Assembly (NCBI GenBank): GCA_951828585.1
Contig: OX639991.1
Coordinates: forward strand, 898,576 to 962,575
Direction: 5' to 3'
Source of the DNA: Longimicrobiales bacterium
GTDB lineage: Bacteria > Gemmatimonadota > Gemmatimonadetes > Longimicrobiales > Gaopeijiaceae
Length of the DNA: 64,000 nucleotides
The translations under genes and the position numbers were made by a program. The notes under the pieces were generated by a model. That model did not search any database. It saw only the letters and a list, made by a program, of their open reading frames with translations, and was not told the origin of the DNA. This document shows, one piece after another, positions 5,077-63,936 of the stretch. Each line of letters begins with the position of its first letter. Within the stretch, counting starts at the first letter, position 1.

Positions 5077-5102
5077 CGCCACCCCGGTCGCTGGTCGAAA
5101 CG

Positions 5103-6923
5103 CTATCCCCCCAACCCTTCCTCCGGCGCCCCCACATACCCCCCCTCGATGAACGCCATGAACCCGAAGAGCCCGCCCCACGAATGGAACGGGTCGCTCG
5201 ACAGGCGCTCATCGTCTCCCGCCCCGGTGATCGAGGAGTAGTTCTCGCTCACGTACCCCTTCCGGCGCCACTCGGAGAGGAACATGTCGAGGGAACGCGC
5301 TGACAACTCGGTGGCCACGTCATACGCCCCCGCCCGCCGCAGTCCCAGATACGTGAGAAAGTTGAGCGGCGGCCAGATCGCGCTTTTCCAGTAGCGTTGC
5401 TGCGGGAACGACGGATCGTCCCGCGTGGTCGAAGGCAGCACGTAGTCTCCCCAGAACTCGGCCGGGTTGAGGAGGTGGTCGCGGATCATGCGCTCGGCGC
5501 GGTCCGCATCGGGGACATCGGCCAGGAGCGGGTAGAATAGGGTCGGCGAGCGTCGGCCCGAGGGCTGGTCCAGGTCCGTCCGGTAGTTCAGATAGTAGCC
5601 GCGCTCCTCCACCCACAGGCCGTCCAGCGCTTCCGTGAACTGGCGCGCCCGCTCCATCAGCTCCCCGGCCTCGGCGCCCCGTCCCAGTACCCCGGCCAGC
5701 TCCGCCAGAGCCAGACAATCCGCGATGTACAGGCTCGTCAGCCCCACATCCTGCAGCTCGAGCGTGTTCTTTTCGGGATTGAACGGCACATCCTCGTACA
5801 TCGGCGAGTCGTCCATCCCCGACTCGTAGCCCGCGGTTCGCCTGGTGCGCACGGCCGGTTCGTTGAAGGGATTCCGCGCCTCGTGCGACCCGTAGCTGAG
5901 CAGTCCCCCGTTCATCCGCTTCCGCGGCCACCACCGATTCCACTCCAGCAGCGGATCGAAGGCGGCCTCCAGAAACCACCGCTCCGGGTATCGCCGGTAC
6001 ACCTCGCGTACCATGATCCCCCCGACCGGCGGCTGCGAACGATCCCACGACTTGCTGCCGTTGCCGCGATTGTCGTTCGGGAGGAACCCTTCGGCGGTCG
6101 CGCCCCGCAGGTGCTCGATTACGTTGGCGATCGCCAACTCGCGATTGTCGAGCGAGGTCATGTAGGCCAGGAAAAAGTTGTCCCAGCCGAAGAGCGCCAC
6201 GCCGCCGTACTCCTGGTTCCAAAGTCGCCCTACGGTGGACACCACGCGGTCGTGGCGCGGTTCGTAGATCGTGTTCCAGGCGATGCCGGAGGTGACCGCC
6301 AGGTAGGCTTCGGCGAGGTCGCCGTATCCGTCCGCACGTTCCCGCAGCGACCCCTCGGCGGCATCGAGGGCGGCGCGGATCTCGTTCAGGTCACGCGGCA
6401 TCCCCGTCGACAAGCCCACCGGCCCGTCCAGACGCACGACCCGGTGCGCGAGCAGGGTCTCCGTGTAGGGATCCTGCTCTGCGGTGCCCACCACGTGAAT
6501 GGGATGCGTCGCCAAAGCGTGCCGCGCGACGAAACCGTCGTCGGACGACCTCACCGACCCCTCCCGGTTCCAGGCGAAACCAGCGCTCACAACCAGTTCG
6601 TAGTGGGCCGGTTTGTCCGCCACTTCAGGGTCATAGTGGCCGACAACGTCCGCGGGGGCCGGTTTGTCGGCCACTAAGGGGCCATTGTGGCCGACAACGG
6701 TCGGTTCGGCGGGTTTGTCCGCCACTTCCGGGCCATTGTGGCCGACAACAGCCGCGGGAGTCGAGTCGTGGGGCGTAACCAGAACCACCAACTCATCCCC
6801 CGCATGACCCGCCTCAACCGTCGCCGAGAGCCCCTGCCACTCGACGTCGAGCCGCATGTACGAACCGTCCAGGGCGTGGACACCGGGGCGGATCGCCGGC
6901 GGGATGGAAGCTGTCGCCAGCAT
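5103..6923 (-). CDS. (alpha/alpha)6-barrel glycoside hydrolase, GH63 / MGH1-like (glucosidase or mannosylglycerate-hydrolase-like)
   Basis: ATG at 6923. Motifs 'FGWDNFFLAYM', 'GFLPNDNRGNG..WDRSQPPVG', 'GYESGMDDSPMYED', 'YWKSAIWPPLNF' are typical of clan GH-G enzymes. The exact family is not certain. Confidence 0.7.
   Translation of the reverse strand: MLATASIPPAIRPGVHALDGSYMRLDVEWQGLSATVEAGHAGDELVVLVTPHDSTPAAVVGHNGPEVADKPAEPTVVGHNGPLVADKPAPADVVGHYDPEVADKPAHYELVVSAGFAWNREGSVRSSDDGFVARHALATHPIHVVGTAEQDPYTETLLAHRVVRLDGPVGLSTGMPRDLNEIRAALDAAEGSLRERADGYGDLAEAYLAVTSGIAWNTIYEPRHDRVVSTVGRLWNQEYGGVALFGWDNFFLAYMTSLDNRELAIANVIEHLRGATAEGFLPNDNRGNGSKSWDRSQPPVGGIMVREVYRRYPERWFLEAAFDPLLEWNRWWPRKRMNGGLLSYGSHEARNPFNEPAVRTRRTAGYESGMDDSPMYEDVPFNPEKNTLELQDVGLTSLYIADCLALAELAGVLGRGAEAGELMERARQFTEALDGLWVEERGYYLNYRTDLDQPSGRRSPTLFYPLLADVPDADRAERMIRDHLLNPAEFWGDYVLPSTTRDDPSFPQQRYWKSAIWPPLNFLTYLGLRRAGAYDVATELSARSLDMFLSEWRRKGYVSENYSSITGAGDDERLSSDPFHSWGGLFGFMAFIEGGYVGAPEEGLGG
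5139..5192. repeat. Direct repeat copy B (inside the 3' end of the GH gene)
   Basis: See copy A. The two copies are 1540 bp apart. Confidence 0.9.
6597..6749 (-). repeat. In-frame 3 x 51-bp tandem repeat within the GH gene N-terminal region
   Basis: Units 6699-6749, 6648-6698 and 6597-6647 encode VVGHNGPEVADKPAEPT / VVGHNGPLVADKPAPAD / VVGHYDPEVADKPAHYE. Confidence 0.9.
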
Positions 6924-35131: not shown

Positions 35132-36019
35132 GTGAACGTCCACCTCATCGACGGCACCTACGAACTCTTCCGGCACCACTTCGGCGGCGCCCCGGCCACC
35201 GATCGCGAGGGCCGGCCCGTGGGCGCCATACGCGGCGTACTGGCCTCGCTCCTCGGCATGCTTGAGCTGGGCGCGACGCACATGGCCGTCGCCACCGATC
35301 ACGTCATCGAGTCCTTCCGCAACGACTTGTGGCCCGGCTACAAGACGGGCGCGGGCATCGACCCCGACCTTCTGGCCCAGTTCCATCCGCTCGAGGACGC
35401 GCTAAGGGCGATGGGCGTGCAGGTGTGGGCCATGGAGGAACTGGAGGCCGATGACGGGCTGGCATCGGGGGCGGCGCGGGCGGCCCGCGACCCCCGGGTC
35501 GAGCGCGTGTATATCTGCACGCCGGACAAGGATCTGTCGCAGTGCGTGGTGGGTAGTCGGGTGGTTCAGTGGGACAGGCGGAAGGACGAGATTCGCGACG
35601 CGGATGGGGTGGTGGCGAAGTTCGGGGTGGGGCCCGCGAGCATTCCGGATTATCTGGCCCTGGTGGGCGACAGCGCGGACGGGTTTCCGGGGATTCCGGG
35701 GTGGGGGGCGAAGTCGACCGCGGCGGTGCTGGGTCGGTATCGACATCTGGAGCACATTCCGGGGCGTGTGGACCGCTGGGACGTGCAGGTGCGGGGGGCG
35801 AAGAGGCTGGCGGCGACGCTGGCGGCCAATCGGGCGGCGGCGCTGCTGTTTCGCGACCTGGCGACCTTGCGCGACAGTGCGGCGGTCTTCGAGGAGGTGG
35901 ACGAGTTGGAGTGGAGGGGGGTGGGGGACGGCTTCAGGGAGCTGGTTGAGGGGTTTGGGGTGGTGGGGTTGTGGAGGCGGGCGGTGCGGTTGGGGGAGTC
36001 GCGGCTTGGGGGTCGGTGA
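35132..36019 (+). CDS. 5'-3' exonuclease / flap endonuclease (Pol I N-terminal domain-like, stand-alone)
   Basis: GTG at 35132. 'VHLIDGTYELFR', 'CTPDKDLSQCV', 'LVGDSADGFPGIPGWGAKSTA' (H3TH). The upstream part of the long track ORF is antisense to the S9 peptidase. Confidence 0.8.
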   Translation: MNVHLIDGTYELFRHHFGGAPATDREGRPVGAIRGVLASLLGMLELGATHMAVATDHVIESFRNDLWPGYKTGAGIDPDLLAQFHPLEDALRAMGVQVWAMEELEADDGLASGAARAARDPRVERVYICTPDKDLSQCVVGSRVVQWDRRKDEIRDADGVVAKFGVGPASIPDYLALVGDSADGFPGIPGWGAKSTAAVLGRYRHLEHIPGRVDRWDVQVRGAKRLAATLAANRAAALLFRDLATLRDSAAVFEEVDELEWRGVGDGFRELVEGFGVVGLWRRAVRLGESRLGGR

Positions 36020-36096
36020 TCCACCTCGGCGGGGCACCGCTTGTCACTGACAGGACGATGATCTAGAGTCTACATACTGTCTGGACCCATGCTCCC

Positions 36097-36861
36097 ATGT
36101 TCCGGCAGCAACCACGAGTTCGAATGGCCCGTAAACGCCACCTCACCCAGGCACCCATCCGCGAAGCGGTCCTCGATGTGCGTATCGAGACCGAGGAACC
36201 AGTCGATCCAGGTCGTTTGCGACAAGTCCTGGAGTCGTTGGACGGATTCCCGGAAGTTCATGAGCTTGCTCCGGACTCGCTGCCCCCTCACTTCCCCAGT
36301 GAACTCCAACAAGGCAGCCCCACCGAGGCTGAGACCGTCATCGGAGTGCGTGGAATCAGCAGGGATCGTGATTGGGTGATCGATTTTCGGCAACATGGTG
36401 TCACCTTCATCCGTAGGGCTCCGTATCCTGACTGGGAGGAATACTCTGCGCAGTCGCGCCCATTGGTCGAAGGGTTTCTTGATGTTGCCAACCCTCACGA
36501 GGTCGTTCGACTGGCTCTCCGGTACATCAACCATTTCAGGCTGCCGGACCGCGATCCCAGGGACTATTTCGTGGCCCTCCCTTCGTTCCCGAGTTCGCTG
36601 GAGCTACCGGTGGACCACATACTGTCCGCCATTAGCGCAAGCGATCCGGAATCCGGGCTCTCCGCGCATGTCACACATGTTCTGCTGGACGATCTGGCAC
36701 CCGAGAGGATCGGGTTCCTTTTGGATATCGATGTCTTCTCGGACAACCGGTTCGCTCCCCGAACGGATCAGTTTTGGGGAACCTTTGAGAAACTCAGGCA
36801 CTTCAAGAATAGACTCTTCTTCGAATTGATCACCGAGCGAAACGCGAGAATCCACGAATGA
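36097..36861 (+). CDS. TIGR04255-like uncharacterised protein (tentative)
   Basis: ATG at 36097 (alternative ATG at 36124). 'LTQAPIREAVLDVRIE' N-terminal signature and a size of about 250 aa resemble the TIGR04255 family, recalled from memory. Lower GC than neighbours. Confidence 0.5.
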   Translation: MFRQQPRVRMARKRHLTQAPIREAVLDVRIETEEPVDPGRLRQVLESLDGFPEVHELAPDSLPPHFPSELQQGSPTEAETVIGVRGISRDRDWVIDFRQHGVTFIRRAPYPDWEEYSAQSRPLVEGFLDVANPHEVVRLALRYINHFRLPDRDPRDYFVALPSFPSSLELPVDHILSAISASDPESGLSAHVTHVLLDDLAPERIGFLLDIDVFSDNRFAPRTDQFWGTFEKLRHFKNRLFFELITERNARIHE

Positions 36862-37322
36862 TCCTGACACGACGGATCACCGTCCCCACTCGGCAGTACC
36901 GATCGCGTGCATTGTATGAGAAGGCGCTGGAGGCAGATCGGGAGATTGGTCAGCTCACACGCAGGAGCAAGAGTCCGGGCTATTGGATGGCCAGGATGGA
37001 TCTCATCGACCTGCTCGAGGCGTCCGGGGCGATGGAAGAAGACACCTTGCTGCCCGCGACATTCGCCAGAGCCAGACGCTTGCTGGAAACGATTCCATCA
37101 GGGTTCCCGGTTCCCGAGATCGCCCTCGACCCCGATGGTGAGGTAGCGTTCGATTGGATACGTAGTGATCGTACCATGGTCTCTGTCAGCATCGGCCCCG
37201 GGGGAGACCCCAGTTACGCCGCCGGGCTCCCCGACGGTACGGCCTACGGATTTGTGCGATGGACGGATACCTTTCCGACCGCGCTGAAGGACCTGCTCAG
37301 ACGTCTCTACCATCCCCGCTGA
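36858..37322 (+). CDS. Hypothetical protein (154 aa), cassette gene 2
   Basis: ATGA start/stop overlap with gene 1 (36858-36861). No signal peptide, TM segment or recognised motif. Confidence 0.5.
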   Translation: MILTRRITVPTRQYRSRALYEKALEADREIGQLTRRSKSPGYWMARMDLIDLLEASGAMEEDTLLPATFARARRLLETIPSGFPVPEIALDPDGEVAFDWIRSDRTMVSVSIGPGGDPSYAAGLPDGTAYGFVRWTDTFPTALKDLLRRLYHPR

Positions 37323-37328
37323 CCACCG

Positions 37329-37712
37329 ATGGGTGAAATCGCCCGATTCCTTTTTCACCGCCGCCAATACGCACCGAGCAAACAGATCGTTAAGCCCGGG
37401 GCGTTTCTTCCAAACAATGGACAGACTTCGGTGTTCGAGATTTCCGGGTTGCCGGAACCGGATATCCGCACCATCGGCATCCAGGTCGGCTCGGCCCGTA
37501 GCACCGAACCACGTGGGCGGGGTGAACTCACACACCAGGATGTGGAGGACGCCGGCCTCCTGTTCGAGCGCGACGACAAACCCCCAAGGCACGGAAACCT
37601 GGTCGGGTGGCCCTCGGCGGACGGCAGGAGAAAAGACCGAAACAAGGATGTCGCCCGGCGCCTTGCTCAGAAAGCGGTACTGGTGCTGCACCGCCGACCG
37701 GAGAACCGGTAG
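37329..37712 (+). CDS. Hypothetical protein (127 aa), cassette gene 3
   Basis: ATG 6 nt after the gene 2 stop. 'GELTHQDVEDAGLLFERDDKPPRHGNLVGWP'. No recognised family. Confidence 0.5.
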   Translation: MGEIARFLFHRRQYAPSKQIVKPGAFLPNNGQTSVFEISGLPEPDIRTIGIQVGSARSTEPRGRGELTHQDVEDAGLLFERDDKPPRHGNLVGWPSADGRRKDRNKDVARRLAQKAVLVLHRRPENR

Positions 37713-37721
37713 GAAGATCCC

Positions 37722-39182
37722 CTACCCCACCGTCTTCAGGATCCAGTCCGCAATCACTTCCATCACCTCGACCGACCAGGTCTCCTCGATGGCCTGGTAC
37801 TCGCTGGGCGCCCCGGTCTCCGAGTGCTGGAAGAGGTGGTTGAGGTCGGGGAAGGAGTGGATCTCGTAGCGGGTGTTGCCGCCACGCTGCAGGGCCGCCT
37901 CGATCTCGCGGAGGTTCTCTTCGTGGGGGACCTGGAGGTCCTTTTCGCCGTTGATGGCCAGGACGGGGACGGTGACCCGCTCGATCGTCTCCGCGGGGTC
38001 GTAGGTCAGGAAGTAGCGAAGCCAGGCATCGCTGGCCAGTGAGGTCAGCAGCTGTTCAACCATGGAAGGGGCGTTGATGCCGTCCTGGCCCTCCAACCGC
38101 TCACGCACTTCCGTCCCCGACGCCTGAAAGACCGCCGCGATCGCTTCGACCGCGCGTTCGGGATCGGACTCGGACTTCAGGATTTCGAAGACGGCTCGAT
38201 TAGTCTCCTGGATCTCCGCGATCTCCTCTTCGGAGGCACCGCCCGCGCGGGCGATCAACTCGGTTTGCGCGTAGGCCAGGGTCTCGCCAAGTACGCCAGG
38301 CGCCGCCATAAGGACGATGTAGCTGACATCGGGAGACTCCACCGCCACCATGGGGGCGATCACACCGCCCTCGGAGTGCCCGACGAGCCCGATCCTGCCG
38401 GGGTCGACATCGTCGCGGCCCTTGAGGTACGCCACCCCGGCCAGCGCGTCCGAAGCGAACTCCTCCGAGGTCGCTGCTCCGAAGTCCCCGGTCGATCCAC
38501 CCACGCCACGGTCGTCGTAGCGCAGCACCGCGATCCCGCGCCGGGTAAGGTGGTCGGCCAGCACCAGGAAGGGGCTGTGCCCCAGGGCGGCTCCGTCGCG
38601 GTTCTGGGGACCCGAACCCGAGATCAGGATCACGGCCGGGAAGGGGCCGCCGGACGGGGGCAGGGTGAAGGTGCCCGCCAGCGTGTGACCTCCGATCGGG
38701 TTGGGATAGGTCACGTCCTCGGCCAGGTACGGGAAGGGCTCCTCGGGGTCCTGGGGCCTCCTCGCCGGAGCCTCGGCTGCGTCCACGCGATCCAGGATGA
38801 GCGGGAAGGTCCGGCCTTCCTGTGTGAAGGCCCCCGTGATCTTTCCATCCACTCGAGACAGCGTGCCGGTGTAGGATGCTTCGGCCATCGACATTTTCAT
38901 CGAGATTGTGTCGCCGTTGACGGTGGCCTCGAAGGGGTCACCCCGATCGTAGGTGTATTTGACCTGCGCGTTCCCCCGCTCCATCGAGAACTCCGTGAAT
39001 TGCAGCACGCCTTCCACCTCGGCCAGGACGAAGCGTATCTGCTGCTCCACACCGTCGGCCTCCACACTGCCCCCCCAGGTTCCCACAAAGCCGGTGGATT
39101 CCACACCGTCCCCTTCCTGCCTGGCCACGCCGGGAACCGGTGCGGCGAGGAGGGCGGTCACACAGACCAGCAGAGCCTTCAT
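37722..39182 (-). CDS. Secreted alpha/beta hydrolase with an N-terminal lipocalin-like domain (paralog 1)
   Basis: ATG at 39182. Signal 'MKALLVCVTALLAAPVPGVA'. Nucleophile elbow 'GHSEGG'. About two-thirds identical by eye to the adjacent gene. Confidence 0.8.
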   Translation of the reverse strand: MKALLVCVTALLAAPVPGVARQEGDGVESTGFVGTWGGSVEADGVEQQIRFVLAEVEGVLQFTEFSMERGNAQVKYTYDRGDPFEATVNGDTISMKMSMAEASYTGTLSRVDGKITGAFTQEGRTFPLILDRVDAAEAPARRPQDPEEPFPYLAEDVTYPNPIGGHTLAGTFTLPPSGGPFPAVILISGSGPQNRDGAALGHSPFLVLADHLTRRGIAVLRYDDRGVGGSTGDFGAATSEEFASDALAGVAYLKGRDDVDPGRIGLVGHSEGGVIAPMVAVESPDVSYIVLMAAPGVLGETLAYAQTELIARAGGASEEEIAEIQETNRAVFEILKSESDPERAVEAIAAVFQASGTEVRERLEGQDGINAPSMVEQLLTSLASDAWLRYFLTYDPAETIERVTVPVLAINGEKDLQVPHEENLREIEAALQRGGNTRYEIHSFPDLNHLFQHSETGAPSEYQAIEETWSVEVMEVIADWILKTVG

Positions 39183-39190
39183 TGTCGCCC

Positions 39191-40642
39191 CTACCCCCCC
39201 ACCGTCTTCAGAATCCAGTCCGCAATCACTTCCATCACCTCGACCGCCCATGTCTCTTCAATCGCCTGGTATTCACTGGGCGCCCCCGTCTCCGAATGCT
39301 GGAAGAGGTGGTTGAGGTCGGGGAAGGAGTGGATCTCGTAACGGGTGTTCCCGCCGCGCTGCAGCGCCGCCTCGATCTCGCGCAGATTCTCCTCGTAGGG
39401 GACCTGCAGGTCCTTCTCGCCGTTGATCGCCAGGACGGGGACGGTGACTTGCTCGATCATCTCCGCGGGCTCGTAGGTCAGGAAGTAACGGAACCAGGGG
39501 GTGTTGAGCTGCTGCACCTGCGCCGCGATCACGGTCTCCGCCAACGCCGAGTCGGTGATGCCGACCTGGGCCAGCTCCGCGTCGCTCGCCGTCTCCAGAC
39601 TGGCACGAATGATCGCTTCGATCGCCTGGCCCGCCCGTTCCAGATCCGGCTCCGACTTGAGCACCTCGAAGATGCGCTCCTGCCGGGCCCGGTTGCTGGC
39701 AATCTCGTCCTCGGTCGCCCCACCGGCTCGCAGCATCAGCGCCGCCTGGGCATACAAAATGCGTTCGCCGTTCACCCCGGTGCCGGCCATGAGGACGATG
39801 TAGCTCACGTCGTCGGACTCGGCCGCCGCGATGGGCGCGACGACGCCGCCTTCGGAGTGGCCGGCAAGGCCGATCGCGGAGGGATTCACGTCGTCCCGCG
39901 TCTTGAGGTAGGCCACCGCGGCCAGCGCGTCGGAGGCGAAGTCGGGTGTGGTCGCCGTGGCGAAGGCACCCGTCGACTGGCCCACGCCGCGGTCGTCGTA
40001 GCGCAGGACGGCGATTCCGCGCCGGGTGAGGTGGTCGGCCAGGACCAGGAATGGGCGGTGTCCCATGAGCGCCTCGTTGCGGTCCTGGGGGCCTGAACCC
40101 GAGATGAGGATCACGGCCGGGAAGGGGCCTCCGTCGGCTGGCCGGGTGAAGGTGCCGGCCATGGTGTGGCCGCCGTCGGGGTTCGGGTAGGTGACGTCTT
40201 CGGCCAGGTACGGGTAGGGTTCGACGGGGTCCTGGGGGCGGCTGACGTCGGTTTCTTCCTCGGACACCCGTTCCAGGACGAGGGGAAAGTCGGCGCCGGC
40301 CTGGGTGAAGGTTCCGGTGATCTTCCCGTCTTCCGCGGAAAAGGTGCCTTCGTAGGAGGCTCCGGCGGCCGGCATCGATACGGTGATGGTGGCGCCGCTC
40401 GCGGCGATGCTCACGTTCGGTATCTCGGCGTTGCCCTGGTCCAGGGAGAAGACGGCGACGCTCAGGGCCCCTTCGTCTCCGGTCACTACGAAGCGGAGCC
40501 GCAATTGGGCGGCGCCCACATCAAGGGTGCCCATCCAGTTACCGGCAAAGTCGGCGGGGGCGGGGTTCTCCGGTTCCTGGGCTGTGATTTCGGTGGCCAG
40601 CGGTGCGATGATGGCGGCGATACATGCCAGTAGAACTCTCAT
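39191..40642 (-). CDS. Secreted alpha/beta hydrolase with an N-terminal lipocalin-like domain (paralog 2)
   Basis: ATG at 40642. 'GHSEGG'. The C-terminal 'NGEKDLQVPYEENLREIEAALQRGGNTRYEIHSFPDLNHLFQHSETGAPSEYQAIEETW' differs from paralog 1 at only one residue (Y/H). Confidence 0.8.
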   Translation of the reverse strand: MRVLLACIAAIIAPLATEITAQEPENPAPADFAGNWMGTLDVGAAQLRLRFVVTGDEGALSVAVFSLDQGNAEIPNVSIAASGATITVSMPAAGASYEGTFSAEDGKITGTFTQAGADFPLVLERVSEEETDVSRPQDPVEPYPYLAEDVTYPNPDGGHTMAGTFTRPADGGPFPAVILISGSGPQDRNEALMGHRPFLVLADHLTRRGIAVLRYDDRGVGQSTGAFATATTPDFASDALAAVAYLKTRDDVNPSAIGLAGHSEGGVVAPIAAAESDDVSYIVLMAGTGVNGERILYAQAALMLRAGGATEDEIASNRARQERIFEVLKSEPDLERAGQAIEAIIRASLETASDAELAQVGITDSALAETVIAAQVQQLNTPWFRYFLTYEPAEMIEQVTVPVLAINGEKDLQVPYEENLREIEAALQRGGNTRYEIHSFPDLNHLFQHSETGAPSEYQAIEETWAVEVMEVIADWILKTVGG

Positions 40643-60655: not shown

Positions 60656-62295
60656 GGTTCTTCCCCTGTCGTGGTGGGCGGGCAAGGGGGAGGGTCGAAT
60701 TATGGGGCGGGTTGGCGGGCTTTCGCAACAGCGGCGGTGGGATGAGCGTGGGTGGAGAGAGTGGAACAGCGAGGATGTAGTAGACGACGGGAGGGGCGAT
60801 CCCCTTCGGCGAAGGCTGACGTGCCGCCGACCGGCCGGGGTGACCCTCTCGACCACTCCTCGCACAACGACTTGGTTGGGCGCGGAAGCCACCGGCGCTG
60901 GTGCTGAACGGGGAGGAGAGTAGCGGGTTGCCTTTCGGGATCGCGAGACTCGGAGGAAATTGCGTGGTCAGGCCGCGGAGCGCTCGCTCCCGGCAGGTGT
61001 CCACAACGAGACGGAAGGGAACTCGCAGACATGGCCGGAAGAGACTGGCTGGACGCCGTTCTGGGCCTGGGTCCGGAGTGGAAGGTCACGAGGGTGGAGC
61101 CGGCCCGGGACCCCAAGGAACTTCGGGTGGAGTTGCAACGGACCGGAGGGAGCCCGTTGAGGTGTCCTCACTGCGGCGAGGCGTGCCCGGGCTACGATAC
61201 GCGCCGCCGCGAGTGGCGGAACCTGGATGCCTGGGGCTACAAGACCTTTCTGGTCTGCAATGTCCCGCGGGTCCAGTGCCCGGAGCACGGGGTGGTCACG
61301 ATTCAGGTGCCGTGGGCGGAGGGGAGCACGAGGTACACGATGGAGTTCGAGGCGGAGGTGATCCGGTGGCTCAAGGTGGCGAGCGTACAGGCGGTCGCCA
61401 GCCGGATGCGGCTGAGCTGGAACGCGGTGGACGGAATCATGCAACGTGCAGTGGCGCGGGGACTTGCGCGCCGCAAGACGAAGGCGGTTCGGCGCCTTTC
61501 GGTGGACGAGACCTCGTTCCGCCGCCGGCACCAGTACGTGACCGTGGTGTCGAATCCGGAGACGGGCCACGTCGTGCATGTCGCCCCGGGACGGGGCAAG
61601 GACGTGCTCCTGGCGTTCTACGAGGGCATGGGAGAGAAGTACCGGGAGGCTGTCGAGAGCGTCAGCATGGACATGTGGGGGCCCTACATCTCGGCGACTC
61701 TGGCGATGATCCCGGACGCCGTGATGAAGATCGCGTTCGACCGGTTCCACGTGGCCAAGCACCTCGGCGACGCGGTGGACAAGGTCCGGCGGGCGGAGCA
61801 CCGGGCGCTGGTGAAGGAGGGCAACGGGATCCTCGTGGGCACCAAGTGGCAGTGGCTGAAGGGCCCCAGACGGAAGACGCACGCCGAAAAGCTGGCGTTC
61901 GCGAGGCTCCGTGCGGGCACCCGCCGGACCGCCCAGGCCTGGGAGCTGAAGGAAGCGGCCGCGAACCTCTGGAACTACCGGAGCAGAACCTGGGCGCTGG
62001 CCGGATGGCACCGGTGGCTGGAGTGGGCATCGGACTGCGATCTGGAGCCGGTCCTGAAAACCGCCCGGATGATCCGGGAGCATCTGTGGGGAATCGTCAA
62101 TGCGATCATCCTCCGCGCCACCAACGGACCGGCGGAAGGCATCAACAGCCGGATCAAGACAGTCAAGGTCCGCAGCCGCGGCTTTCGCAACCGGGAACGC
62201 TTCGCGAACGCCATCCTCTTCCACCTCGGCGGCCTCGACCTCTACCCCGATGGCCTGCGCACATGACCTGCTACCCACCAGAAAAGGGGAAGAAC
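60656..62295 (+). mobile_element. ISL3-family insertion sequence (1640 bp)
   Basis: IRL ggttcttcccctgtcgtggtggg (60656-60678). IRR reverse complement ggttcttccccttttctggtggg (62273-62295), 20/23 match. Perfect 8-bp TSD. Single transposase ORF. Confidence 0.88.
61031..62266 (+). CDS. ISL3-family transposase
   Basis: N-terminal zinc-ribbon 'CPHCGEACPGYD...CPEHG', 'LSVDETSFRRRHQYVTVV', 'SMDMWGPYI', 'NGPAEGINSRIKTVK'. Confidence 0.92.
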   Translation: MAGRDWLDAVLGLGPEWKVTRVEPARDPKELRVELQRTGGSPLRCPHCGEACPGYDTRRREWRNLDAWGYKTFLVCNVPRVQCPEHGVVTIQVPWAEGSTRYTMEFEAEVIRWLKVASVQAVASRMRLSWNAVDGIMQRAVARGLARRKTKAVRRLSVDETSFRRRHQYVTVVSNPETGHVVHVAPGRGKDVLLAFYEGMGEKYREAVESVSMDMWGPYISATLAMIPDAVMKIAFDRFHVAKHLGDAVDKVRRAEHRALVKEGNGILVGTKWQWLKGPRRKTHAEKLAFARLRAGTRRTAQAWELKEAAANLWNYRSRTWALAGWHRWLEWASDCDLEPVLKTARMIREHLWGIVNAIILRATNGPAEGINSRIKTVKVRSRGFRNRERFANAILFHLGGLDLYPDGLRT

Positions 62296-62303
62296 CAACT
62301 TTC
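62296..62303. repeat. ISL3 target-site duplication, right copy (AACTTTCT)
   Basis: See the left copy. Confidence 0.85.
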
Positions 62304-62445
62304 TTTGGCATCCTCTTGCCCTCCTCGTCTCACGGAGACCCATGGAGAGGGTGGAAGAGGGTGCCGCTACACCGCGTTCTCAGGCGCTCCTACCCCCTCC
62401 AAAGTGATCGGAATCACTGATCGGAATCCATCGGACTCCGCACAA

Positions 62446-63936
62446 TCATACCCCGCATTCGGCATCATCATCCTCAGAAACCACTGTTATATAGATGGAA
62501 TCGCTCGCGGTCCTGGCCCTAATATCAGTCACCGTCACTCGCAACCAACCGGAATCCATGACAGTGCCACTAGCTTGACTGGAAGTACCACCCAGGACCC
62601 CTGACCAACTATATGACACCCCCATCCCTCGGCCGCTCGCAGTCCACACACACTCCGCTTCCTCTTGCACAACCGTCGGCCCACTACCAATGTACACCGA
62701 AGGGTCGCCAAAGTCCGGCGAAACCCACAGGGCACCGAGCTCTCTTTCTATAGAACCCACAGGCGAAACCCAATTCGTCGTACTCGTCTCCAACCAACTC
62801 GCGATACCCGCAGCAAACTGAACACCCGTCAATACAACATACGATCCCACGGTCTTGTATATGACAGCGCCGCTTTGTCCTACACCGATTCCCTCACTCG
62901 TTATAATCTTATCGGGACAGCTGACGCCGTACCAGTTACCGTCATCACGCTGCGCCACGAACGCGTCAACACACGTACCGTCCACTCTCGCGTCAATGGC
63001 GTGCGTTGGACTGTGTGCCAACAGATACACGGATTCACCAGCGATATTGCTGCCTGCGCCATGAATTACACGTCCCCCCCTTAGCTCGCCCAACGCTATG
63101 TCGTCATAGCTGTCCACCCCAATCAAGGCAGCGTCAGACTCCCGACACAAGACTTCTTTATCCCAGACTAGGGGGCGCCTACGGACACAATTCTCAATAG
63201 TCCTGCCACCGGGGTCACTTATCTCCGCGCCTATTCGACTTCCATTGTAGATCCAAGTCCCCCCATCAAAATCATAGAATCTCTGTGTACAATGAGAAGG
63301 GACAACAAATACTGGAGCGCCGCCGTATAATGTTAGTGCGGTAAAACTGACTGAACACCCCCCTTGCCGACCTTCGCGGCGTGCAAAATCGCCACCGCGC
63401 ATCCGACCATCGGAGCCCGCAGATAACTGCCTTATTGGTAGGTTAGGTTGGCGGATTCGCATTCCACGCCCAACAGATGGTGATTCTCTAGAGAACGAAA
63501 TCATATCCGACGGGATTTGCAATGTGGTCGCCAACTCTTCCACACCTACGATAGCTGACATATCCTGCAAGGCAACGGCAATTTTGTTGTTCGCCTCGTC
63601 AACCGAAAGAGCGCTCACACCCGGGAGGGCGTACAAGTGAGGACGAAGGCGCGCACGGTGACGTGCTAAGTCAAGGAAAGAATACTTCACCACCCGCGCG
63701 ACAAACTCCAGAGGCGGAACATCGCCCATCGGAGCAAAATCAATTTGACCCGCCAGCATAGCCGAAACCGCTTTCGTCGCTTTCGGGAAAGCGTCGATAC
63801 TCTCCGCCGTCATCGCGATGATCAGACGATCATCGCCGGGCTCGTAATAGATTCCCGCAAACCCTGGGACCTCACGGGCAAGAGCTATCATGTGCCGACT
63901 CTCGCCAAGCTGATCGTCCGAGATGTAGTCTCCCAT
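62446..63936 (-). CDS. Alpha-lytic/streptogrisin-like (S1E-like) serine protease with a pro-domain and a C-terminal PKD-like domain; atypical active-site context
   Basis: Pro-region-like 'LSVDEANNKIAVALQD'. 'GGCSVSF...VVPSHC' (His), 'ESDAALIGV' (Asp), 'GVGQSGAVIY' (Ser; GQSGA rather than GDSGG). Markedly lower GC. The reading frame stays open upstream to the window end, so the true start may lie outside the window. Confidence 0.55.
   Translation of the reverse strand: MGDYISDDQLGESRHMIALAREVPGFAGIYYEPGDDRLIIAMTAESIDAFPKATKAVSAMLAGQIDFAPMGDVPPLEFVARVVKYSFLDLARHRARLRPHLYALPGVSALSVDEANNKIAVALQDMSAIVGVEELATTLQIPSDMISFSRESPSVGRGMRIRQPNLPIRQLSAGSDGRMRGGDFARREGRQGGCSVSFTALTLYGGAPVFVVPSHCTQRFYDFDGGTWIYNGSRIGAEISDPGGRTIENCVRRRPLVWDKEVLCRESDAALIGVDSYDDIALGELRGGRVIHGAGSNIAGESVYLLAHSPTHAIDARVDGTCVDAFVAQRDDGNWYGVSCPDKIITSEGIGVGQSGAVIYKTVGSYVVLTGVQFAAGIASWLETSTTNWVSPVGSIERELGALWVSPDFGDPSVYIGSGPTVVQEEAECVWTASGRGMGVSYSWSGVLGGTSSQASGTVMDSGWLRVTVTDIRARTASDSIYITVVSEDDDAECGV

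Follow-up and report, generated by a model that had tools for sequence, protein, structure and literature searches.

A conserved three-gene cassette led by a TIGR04255 protein in Longimicrobiales, a candidate toxin-antitoxin-like conflict system

We analysed a stretch of 64,000 nucleotides (nt) from a Longimicrobiales bacterium (assembly GCA_951828585.1, contig OX639991.1, positions 898,576 to 962,575), hereafter called the window, with respect to three small open reading frames (ORFs) that lie together on its + strand. These genes, ORF1 (gene 1), ORF2 (gene 2) and ORF3 (gene 3), occupy a slot in which a 5'-3' exonuclease gene comes first, the trio second, two tandem alpha/beta-hydrolase genes third and dnaE last. 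As read from the sequence, genes 1 and 2 share an ATGA start/stop overlap and genes 2 and 3 are parted by a 6-nt gap (Table 1). A first-pass annotation of this DNA had described a compact, translationally coupled three-gene operon, a description that the overlap and the gap support; its ORF coordinates, the two junctions and the 9-nt distance to the hydrolase stop codon were all exact. The trio is one conserved, translationally coupled accessory unit, and we consider it below as a candidate toxin-antitoxin (TA)-like conflict system.

Table 1. Features of the trio locus, in coordinates of the window (aa, amino acids)
Feature	Position	Strand	Remark
Sigma-70-like promoter candidate, TTGTCA-17 nt-TAGAGT	36041..36069	+	In the 104-nt exonuclease-ORF1 gap; predicted site, weak evidence
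ORF1 (gene 1)	36124..36861 (likely); longest ORF 36097-36861, 254 aa	+	TIGR04255 family protein; proposed constant hub
ATGA start/stop overlap, gene 1/gene 2	36858..36861	+	Translational coupling; read directly in the sequence
ORF2 (gene 2)	36858..37322, 154 aa	+	Proposed neutraliser (antitoxin or adaptor)
Gap between ORF2 and ORF3	37323-37328, 6 nt	+	Read from the sequence
ORF3 (gene 3)	37329..37712, 127 aa (most homologues ~122)	+	Proposed effector or toxin
Inverted repeat GGTAGG-N7-CCTACC, arms 37708-13 and 37721-26	37708..37726	.	Covers both convergent stop codons; probably chance
Convergent hydrolase ORF	37722-39251, 509 aa	-	9 nt between its stop and the ORF3 stop

The first-pass annotation had suggested a resemblance of ORF1 to the TIGR04255 family. 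A hidden Markov model search confirmed this, as ORF1 matched NCBIfam TIGR04255.1 with 113.2 bits (cutoff 30; E 1.8e-32), its residues 16-247 aligning to positions 2-245 of the 252 in the profile, and homologues of ORF1 carry the public name 'TIGR04255 family protein'. The family has no Pfam model, and no mention of it was found in the searchable literature. Since most homologues, as well as the public gene call for the same genome, begin at M10 (MARKRHL...), ORF1 likely starts at 36124 and encodes a protein of 245 aa. ORF2 and ORF3, which had been taken for orphans, proved instead to belong to sizeable conserved families. The ORF2 family comprises 43 clusters, and an exhaustive profile search with ORF3 returned 2,406 clusters at 50% identity (E <= 1e-3), the best 150 matches all being small standalone proteins of about 120-170 aa.

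Searches started from each of the three genes point to the trio as a unit. Homologues of ORF1 and ORF3 adjoin every close relative of ORF2 (50-84% identity), and an ORF1-seeded scan, in which each species was represented by one genome, found the three genes in the same order in Burkholderiales, Opitutaceae (Verrucomicrobiota), Thermoanaerobaculia (Acidobacteriota), Gemmatimonadaceae and Longimicrobiales. A metagenome scan seeded on ORF3 alone, with a narrower ORF3 alignment, gave 80 loci, among which we assessed the 48 with at least 1,350 bp of upstream sequence. In 47 of these 48 loci, the region upstream of ORF3 held a complete TIGR04255 gene together with a homologue of gene 2; the co-occurrence on which the first-pass annotation had staked its proposal was thus borne out. 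The sole exception (locus L064, 1428-2199) is a pair of genes 2 and 3 without TIGR04255, situated beside a PIN/VapC-like toxin gene (68-481).

The arrangement of the genes is conserved as well. Of 78 distinct modules, drawn from many taxa, 70 have genes 1 and 2 overlapping by 4 nt, and the gap between genes 2 and 3 has a median of +4 nt across modules. The ratio of nonsynonymous to synonymous substitution rates (dN/dS) was low among intact copies, with medians of 0.175 for ORF1, 0.167 for ORF2 and 0.140, the lowest of the trio, for ORF3; with values of 0.14-0.18, all three are real genes under purifying selection. We define a type A cassette as a TIGR04255 gene followed, in this order and with tight coupling, by a gene for a 'DPDGEv.f.W' protein and a gene for a protein with an Arg-Ser-His (R-S-H) triad. 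The window locus, with three intact genes, the ATGA overlap and the 6-nt gap, is a cassette of this type.

The composition of the trio is atypical for its surroundings. Its G+C content is 0.595, compared with 0.663 +/- 0.021 for all equal-sized segments of the 64 kb, of which only 1.6% are as low. At third codon positions, the G+C fraction is 0.65-0.70 in the trio genes versus 0.83-0.92 in the flanking peptidase, exonuclease, hydrolase and dnaE genes, so that the lower G+C and the more frequent A/T-ending codons pointed out in the first reading of this DNA hold when computed. The same tendency was seen elsewhere, the module being AT-richer than the DNA around it at 28 of 31 other loci (median difference, -0.066). 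The GC skew directly 5' of the cassette, over the 3' end of the exonuclease gene (35400-36000), is strongly positive at +0.33 to +0.42.

Within 35800-37900, the promoter candidate listed in Table 1 is the sole promoter-like match, the chance expectation being 0.5. At the other end of the trio, the inverted repeat that had been singled out earlier does exist, with both stop codons inside its arms, but it is without demonstrable significance. Four 6-nt inverted repeats or palindromes, GGTAGG/CCTACC included, fall within one 131-nt stretch; given this frequency of comparable repeats nearby and the absence of a T-run after GGTAGG/CCTACC, the repeat is at chance level. A bidirectional intrinsic terminator at this position was rejected on the same grounds, together with the arm length of 6 nt.

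We next consider the history of the trio at this site. The slot order of the window recurs in related Longimicrobiales genomes, the trio genes of which have diverged to dS values of ~0.6 to >2. The first-pass annotation had portrayed a horizontally acquired module wedged between core genes. Recent horizontal acquisition is excluded, however, because the locus is syntenic across genomes with dS > 1; the module is old, has been vertically inherited at a fixed locus of Longimicrobiales (Gemmatimonadota) and decays in place. Two variants of the site were observed. In a strain variant of locus L001 (L003, 7549-9839), an IS21-like element, consisting of a Mu-transposase C-terminal domain protein and IstB, lies inside the hydrolase gene directly downstream of the trio. 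In one Longimicrobiales lineage (L004, 4667-5152; also L005), an extra 161-aa gene without a Pfam match is present between the 5'-3' exonuclease gene and ORF1, and the exonuclease-ORF1 slot has therefore taken other cargo.

A fixed position of this kind would suit a housekeeping or stress-response operon tied to the 5'-3' exonuclease, for example in nucleic-acid repair or processing, rather than a conflict system. The Longimicrobiales trios without exception follow the exonuclease gene immediately, in the same direction and near dnaE, but outside this clade the neighbours are unrelated and the link to the exonuclease is not conserved. Vertical inheritance and purifying selection agree with a housekeeping role, as does the ability of TATA-box-binding protein (TBP)-like folds, one of which is predicted for ORF1 (see below), to bind nucleic acids. 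The module is nevertheless sporadic, AT-rich relative to its hosts, present in phage and restriction-modification (R-M) contexts and repeatedly pseudogenised in close relatives. Because the exonuclease linkage is confined to one clade, we rate this as the least likely of the explanations considered, and a highly improbable one.

Distinct Longimicrobiales lineages comprise 10 with an intact trio and 10 in which it has decayed; given this decay in related genomes, the module is dispensable. The damage is unequally distributed among the genes. ORF3 was truncated, frameshifted or absent in all 10 decayed lineages and ORF1 was disrupted in nine, whereas ORF2 was disrupted in three, significantly more rarely than either partner (Fisher p = 0.003 vs ORF3, 0.02 vs ORF1). 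Only one lineage (L002) bears a single lesion, and what it has lost is the C-terminal end of ORF3. Loss of the toxin first, with the antitoxin kept, is the decay pattern expected of a TA module.

Across the ORF3 family, which is marked by the motifs TSVF and PPRHxNIvGWP, only R6, S34 and H88 are invariant, and such a set of invariant polar residues suggests an enzyme. In the structural model of ORF3 (predicted local distance difference test, pLDDT, 84.5), these residues lie on strands 1, 2 and 5, respectively, of a compact alpha/beta domain, which has no significant Foldseek neighbour in PDB or BFVD. The succession of R on strand 1, S on strand 2 and H on strand 5 is similar to the motif order of ADP-ribosyltransferases (ART). 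An ART fold was not adopted, however, as the best template modelling score (TM) of 0.40, to KptA/Tpt1 (9ldc_A), came with a probability of 0.28 and an E of 1.1 and is not significant. Neither a P-loop nor a match to a kinase family was found in the window ORF3. Single-sequence and profile searches of PDB sequences with all three families hit a cadherin, a designed helical bundle and one ribosomal chain, which were judged spurious.

ORF2 combines a variable N-terminus with a conserved C-terminal domain (...P.PEI.lDPDGEV.fdW...), and only its G94 and W100 are invariant across phyla. An invariant Gly and Trp alone would fit a binding protein better than an enzyme.

The AlphaFold model of ORF1, built on 29 homologues, was of good quality (pLDDT 86.4; predicted TM, pTM, 0.84) and consists of two lobes of the beta-alpha-beta4-alpha type. 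Its best Foldseek matches were TATA-box-binding proteins (probability 0.99, E ~4e-3, modest TM 0.34/0.45). Weaker matches were obtained to large antiparallel-sheet alpha/beta domains, including S-adenosylmethionine decarboxylase (AdoMetDC) and the catalytic domain of guanidino kinases (probability 0.8-0.9). As modelled, the ORF1 fold is thus a two-lobed, TBP-like alpha/beta fold. A SecB-like chaperone was rejected on fold, since SecB (1fx3_D) reached a probability of 0.47 and a TM of 0.15/0.27 compared with the TBP probability of 0.99. About 15 residues are invariant in the TIGR04255 alignment, including E23, Y110, R138, R142, Y143, N145, D210, D212, K237 and N238. The concave sheet of the TBP-like model, together with the cluster of invariant charged residues, suggests that gene 1 binds nucleic acid or another ligand.

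The TIGR04255 gene is not confined to partners of the window type. At every TIGR04255 locus examined outside the clade, two small genes lie directly downstream of it in the same direction, with overlapping or abutting ends. In type A loci, these are the pair found in the window, divergent forms included (L033, L034, L036, L039 and the ORF1- and ORF3-seeded loci). Gene 3 encodes a Pfam DUF7689 protein in type B (L022, L024 and the viral contig L123) and a protein with a 'QSCDL' motif in type C (L028, L030, L032 and the viral contig L124, on which it lies beside terminase genes), while gene 2 of type D is HEAT-repeat-like (L027 and the Crinalium plasmid L038). In the zeta type, from a Vibrio parahaemolyticus plasmid (CP063527; L040, 158-2105), the TIGR04255 gene precedes genes for a 179-aa hypothetical protein and a 192-aa protein that the record labels 'zeta toxin family protein', an annotation that is not confirmed. 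Searches of Pfam, NCBIfam, PADLOC and PHROGs with the partner proteins of these other cassettes gave only DUF7689 (type B gene 3) and HEAT repeats (type D gene 2).

Because the partner types are intermixed in a rough neighbour-joining tree of TIGR04255 proteins (without support values), the sequences suggest repeated exchange of partner pairs around a conserved TIGR04255 hub. We tentatively extend this to a broader proposal, which is possible though still doubtful, namely that three-gene conflict systems built around TIGR04255 as a constant hub make up a large and so far undescribed superfamily. In these, interchangeable neutraliser-effector pairs of at least five kinds (R-S-H, DUF7689, 'QSCDL', HEAT-associated and zeta-like kinase) would be placed on a TBP-like sensor or substrate-binding subunit, and the ORF3 family would represent a toxin fold of a new kind, its catalytic centre formed by Arg, Ser and His.

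The constancy of gene 1 could also be read the other way round, with TIGR04255 as a conserved catalytic effector and the variable genes 2 and 3 as its specificity, sensor or regulatory subunits, in the manner of defence systems that set variable sensors on a constant effector. TIGR04255 is indeed the sole constant component across the cassette types; a pair of genes 2 and 3 nevertheless exists without it (L064), and the distant relative PDC-M32, described below, is a two-gene system. Its ~15 invariant residues look like an active or ligand-binding site, but gene 3 of type A has an invariant R-S-H triad of its own, and the gene 3 variant of the Vibrio plasmid is annotated as a zeta toxin, a known class of toxins. 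Enzyme domains (AdoMetDC and guanidino kinase) are among the Foldseek matches of ORF1, yet the best of them is a binding fold, TBP, and not an enzyme. Finally, ORF1 was lost nearly as often as ORF3 (nine of the 10 decayed lineages), but the lineage with a single lesion lost ORF3 and not ORF1. On balance, we regard such a reversal of roles as unlikely.

Several genomic contexts connect the trio with defence. In L031 and L029, it lies inside a type I R-M operon, in the order hsdR-hsdS-trio-hsdM, and genes for type I R-M subunits, MADS, SspH, PsyrA, HepT-like and AAA_21 proteins recur in the flanks of other trio loci (raw occurrences). A type-A-like trio was also observed at the record end of the P2-like (Peduoviridae) Ralstonia phage YO139_2 (L039, 194-6089), a few kb from a portal-like gene (5094-6089, - strand), with small ORFs, one of them PAAR-like, in between. 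The position of this trio resembles the variable region that we take to be the defence hotspot of P2-like phages. Embedding in R-M loci and in such hotspots makes an anti-phage role plausible. The first-pass annotation had proposed to ask whether the trio sits in defence islands. Some trios are embedded among type I R-M genes, carried by a P2-like phage or placed beside other TA and defence genes, but the window trio itself is flanked by housekeeping genes. The first-pass description of a candidate undescribed defence or TA-like system was, in view of the co-occurrence, the occasional defence context and the atypical composition, a fair reading.

A related explanation dispenses with phage defence. 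In omega-epsilon-zeta, a tripartite TA system, a constant upstream component is followed by an antitoxin-toxin pair. By analogy, the trio could be a purely selfish or regulatory addiction module, in which TIGR04255 would act as an autorepressor through its TBP-like saddle, gene 2 as the antitoxin and gene 3 as the toxin. The gene order would then parallel regulator-antitoxin-toxin, gene 3 of the Vibrio variant bears a zeta toxin annotation, and the TBP fold is a classic DNA-binding saddle. A protein of 245 aa with many invariant charged residues is, however, unusually large and conserved for a TA autorepressor, and upstream of ORF1 there is no operator-like repeat, only 6-nt palindromes. The conserved 4-nt coupling of genes 1 and 2 moreover suggests a stoichiometric complex and not a free-standing repressor. 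Many loci, that of the window included, do lie outside defence islands, and the decay pattern fits a TA module, but nesting in type I R-M operons and phage hotspots suggests defence. We therefore hold an addiction module devoid of a defence function to be distinctly improbable.

The reading towards which we lean is that the type A cassette is a tripartite TA-like conflict system, plausibly an abortive-infection or anti-phage system, with the following predicted roles. Gene 3 would be a small, enzyme-like effector or toxin, for which we rely on its standing as the best conserved of the three, on its enzyme-like invariant triad, on its disruption in all decayed lineages and on the annotated zeta toxin that takes its place in the Vibrio cassette; an Arg-Ser-His triad would suit a metal-independent nuclease or transferase. 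Gene 2 would be the cognate neutraliser of gene 3, made directly upstream and binding the toxin directly. This role is proposed because gene 2 lies upstream as in type II TA systems, has structural invariants only, co-varies with the type of gene 3 and is preferentially kept after the toxin has been lost. Gene 1 would be a constant accessory subunit, co-translated with gene 2, that controls the release or targeting of the effector. It might be a sensor that triggers toxin release, might recruit substrates or bind nucleic acids, or might stabilise the antitoxin or act as its chaperone. Being the constant partner and co-translated with gene 2, gene 1 probably forms a complex with the gene 2 product.

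A number of observations weigh against a conflict system of this design. ORF2 and ORF3 have no match in Pfam, NCBIfam, PADLOC (even at E <= 1), PHROGs or PDB sequences, so that the absence of any component with a known function, asserted from the outset, is upheld by these searches. A DNA-binding domain like those common among type II antitoxins is not recognisable in gene 2. The invariant charged residues of TIGR04255 (E23, R138, R142, N145, D210, D212 and K237) could belong to an enzyme instead of an accessory protein. Gene 3 of the Vibrio locus L040 shows weak P-loop kinase similarity alone and has no PDB sequence match, leaving its zeta label unconfirmed. Errors of long-read assembly may account for some of the frameshifts counted as decay, but not for the deletions and truncations. 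Housekeeping genes are the neighbours in the window and in many other loci. Carriage by mobile elements is rare, with one IMG/VR viral contig for ORF3, three for TIGR04255 and two plasmids with TIGR04255, and no relatives of ORF3 were found on sequenced plasmids. Lastly, a literature search returned no papers on TIGR04255 or DUF7689, and no experimental report on either of them or on PDC-M32.

We compared the trio with known systems. In its arrangement, it conforms to type II TA systems, as ORF2, in the antitoxin position, lies 6 nt upstream of ORF3 on the same strand; by homology it does not, for in the database searches given above neither protein matched a known TA family. The nearest catalogued relative, distant at best on sequence evidence, would be PDC-M32, one of 145 PADLOC phage defence candidates derived by 'guilt-by-embedding' in BREX, DISARM or type I R-M loci (10.1101/2024.01.29.577857), where it corresponds to cassette CAS_00128, FAM_01821>>FAM_00608 (Payne et al., 2024, preprint, 10.1101/2024.01.29.577857). 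Both are small uncharacterised cassettes that occur in type I R-M contexts, as the trios in L029 and L031 do. In the Ralstonia phage trio (L039), the C-terminal domain of gene 2 matches PDC-M32A with an E of 1e-4 and gene 3 matches PDC-M32B with an E of 6e-4, matches that are weak but paired. PDC-M32, however, has two genes, with an A protein of 375 aa, whereas the window trio has three. The window proteins gave no PADLOC match at E <= 1, and no TIGR04255 protein matches M32A; the window trio is accordingly not assigned to PDC-M32.

Among tripartite systems, omega-epsilon-zeta likewise has three co-directional genes and a constant first component before an antitoxin-toxin-like pair. The two differ in that the window ORF3 lacks a P-loop and any similarity to the zeta kinase, and the 245-aa TBP-like ORF1 contrasts with omega, a small repressor of the ribbon-helix-helix type; no component showed sequence homology, and the trio does not belong to that system. 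In toxin-antitoxin-chaperone (TAC) systems, as reportedly described by Bordes et al., a conserved third protein, a SecB-like chaperone, occurs with different, unrelated TA pairs. These systems share with the trio a constant partner with varying pairs and offer a model for a partner that controls the antitoxin. The chaperone gene is, however, the last in TAC and the TIGR04255 gene is the first here, and no chaperone-addiction tail was identified in ORF2.

Two further comparisons concern gene 1. TBP-like domains are the substrate-binding modules of RnlA, an anti-phage TA toxin (PMC8266594). The HEPN toxins RnlA and LsoA (of RnlAB and LsoAB) thereby place a TBP-like fold in an anti-phage TA system and provide a precedent for a substrate-recruiting gene 1. 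Their TBP-like domains are fused to a HEPN nuclease, whereas the fold predicted here belongs to a separate protein, with no HEPN domain and no sequence similarity. Panacea (PanA) is a single conserved domain that is paired with many unrelated toxin families and that can be accessory while a separate element neutralises the toxin (PMC10440598). The promiscuous pairing of one conserved component is as in TIGR04255, but Panacea is a domain inside two-gene TA systems and TIGR04255 is the separate first gene of three, with an unrelated sequence. The trio is a credible, so far undescribed candidate for a TA-like or defence-like cassette made of unstudied families, and none of its components falls in a characterised family.

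Elsewhere in the window, the tandem alpha/beta-hydrolase genes downstream of the trio are paralogues that share a 300-nt block at their 3' ends with 91% identity (37725-38024 vs 39197-39496), while the next block is only 70% identical (region also compared, 38218-38517 vs 39699-39998). This distribution suggests gene conversion between the tandem copies. The 509-aa hydrolase ORF at 37722-39251 has probably been called too long at its 5' end, and its overlap with the ORF at 39191-40642 is therefore likely an ORF-calling artefact. Further downstream, a 411-aa transposase-like ORF (61031-62266, + strand) adjoins the patch of lowest G+C in the window (~62.0-63.9 kb, ~0.55), which holds a 496-aa ORF of unknown function (62446-63936, - strand). 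The region 61031-63936 looks like a separate foreign or mobile island.

If the proposed roles are confirmed, TIGR04255, a widely annotated, 'sporadically distributed' family, would gain a function. The TA and anti-phage repertoire would be enlarged by a new multi-cassette family, along with at least one new effector fold (R-S-H, ~2,400 clusters at 50% identity). At ~1.6 kb, the cassette is small and thus readily testable. A constant hub with swappable pairs would be a natural experiment on the recombination of sensing and killing modules, and the Longimicrobiales locus would be an example of a conflict module that, having long persisted at one position of the chromosome, decays in a set order, toxin first and antitoxin last.

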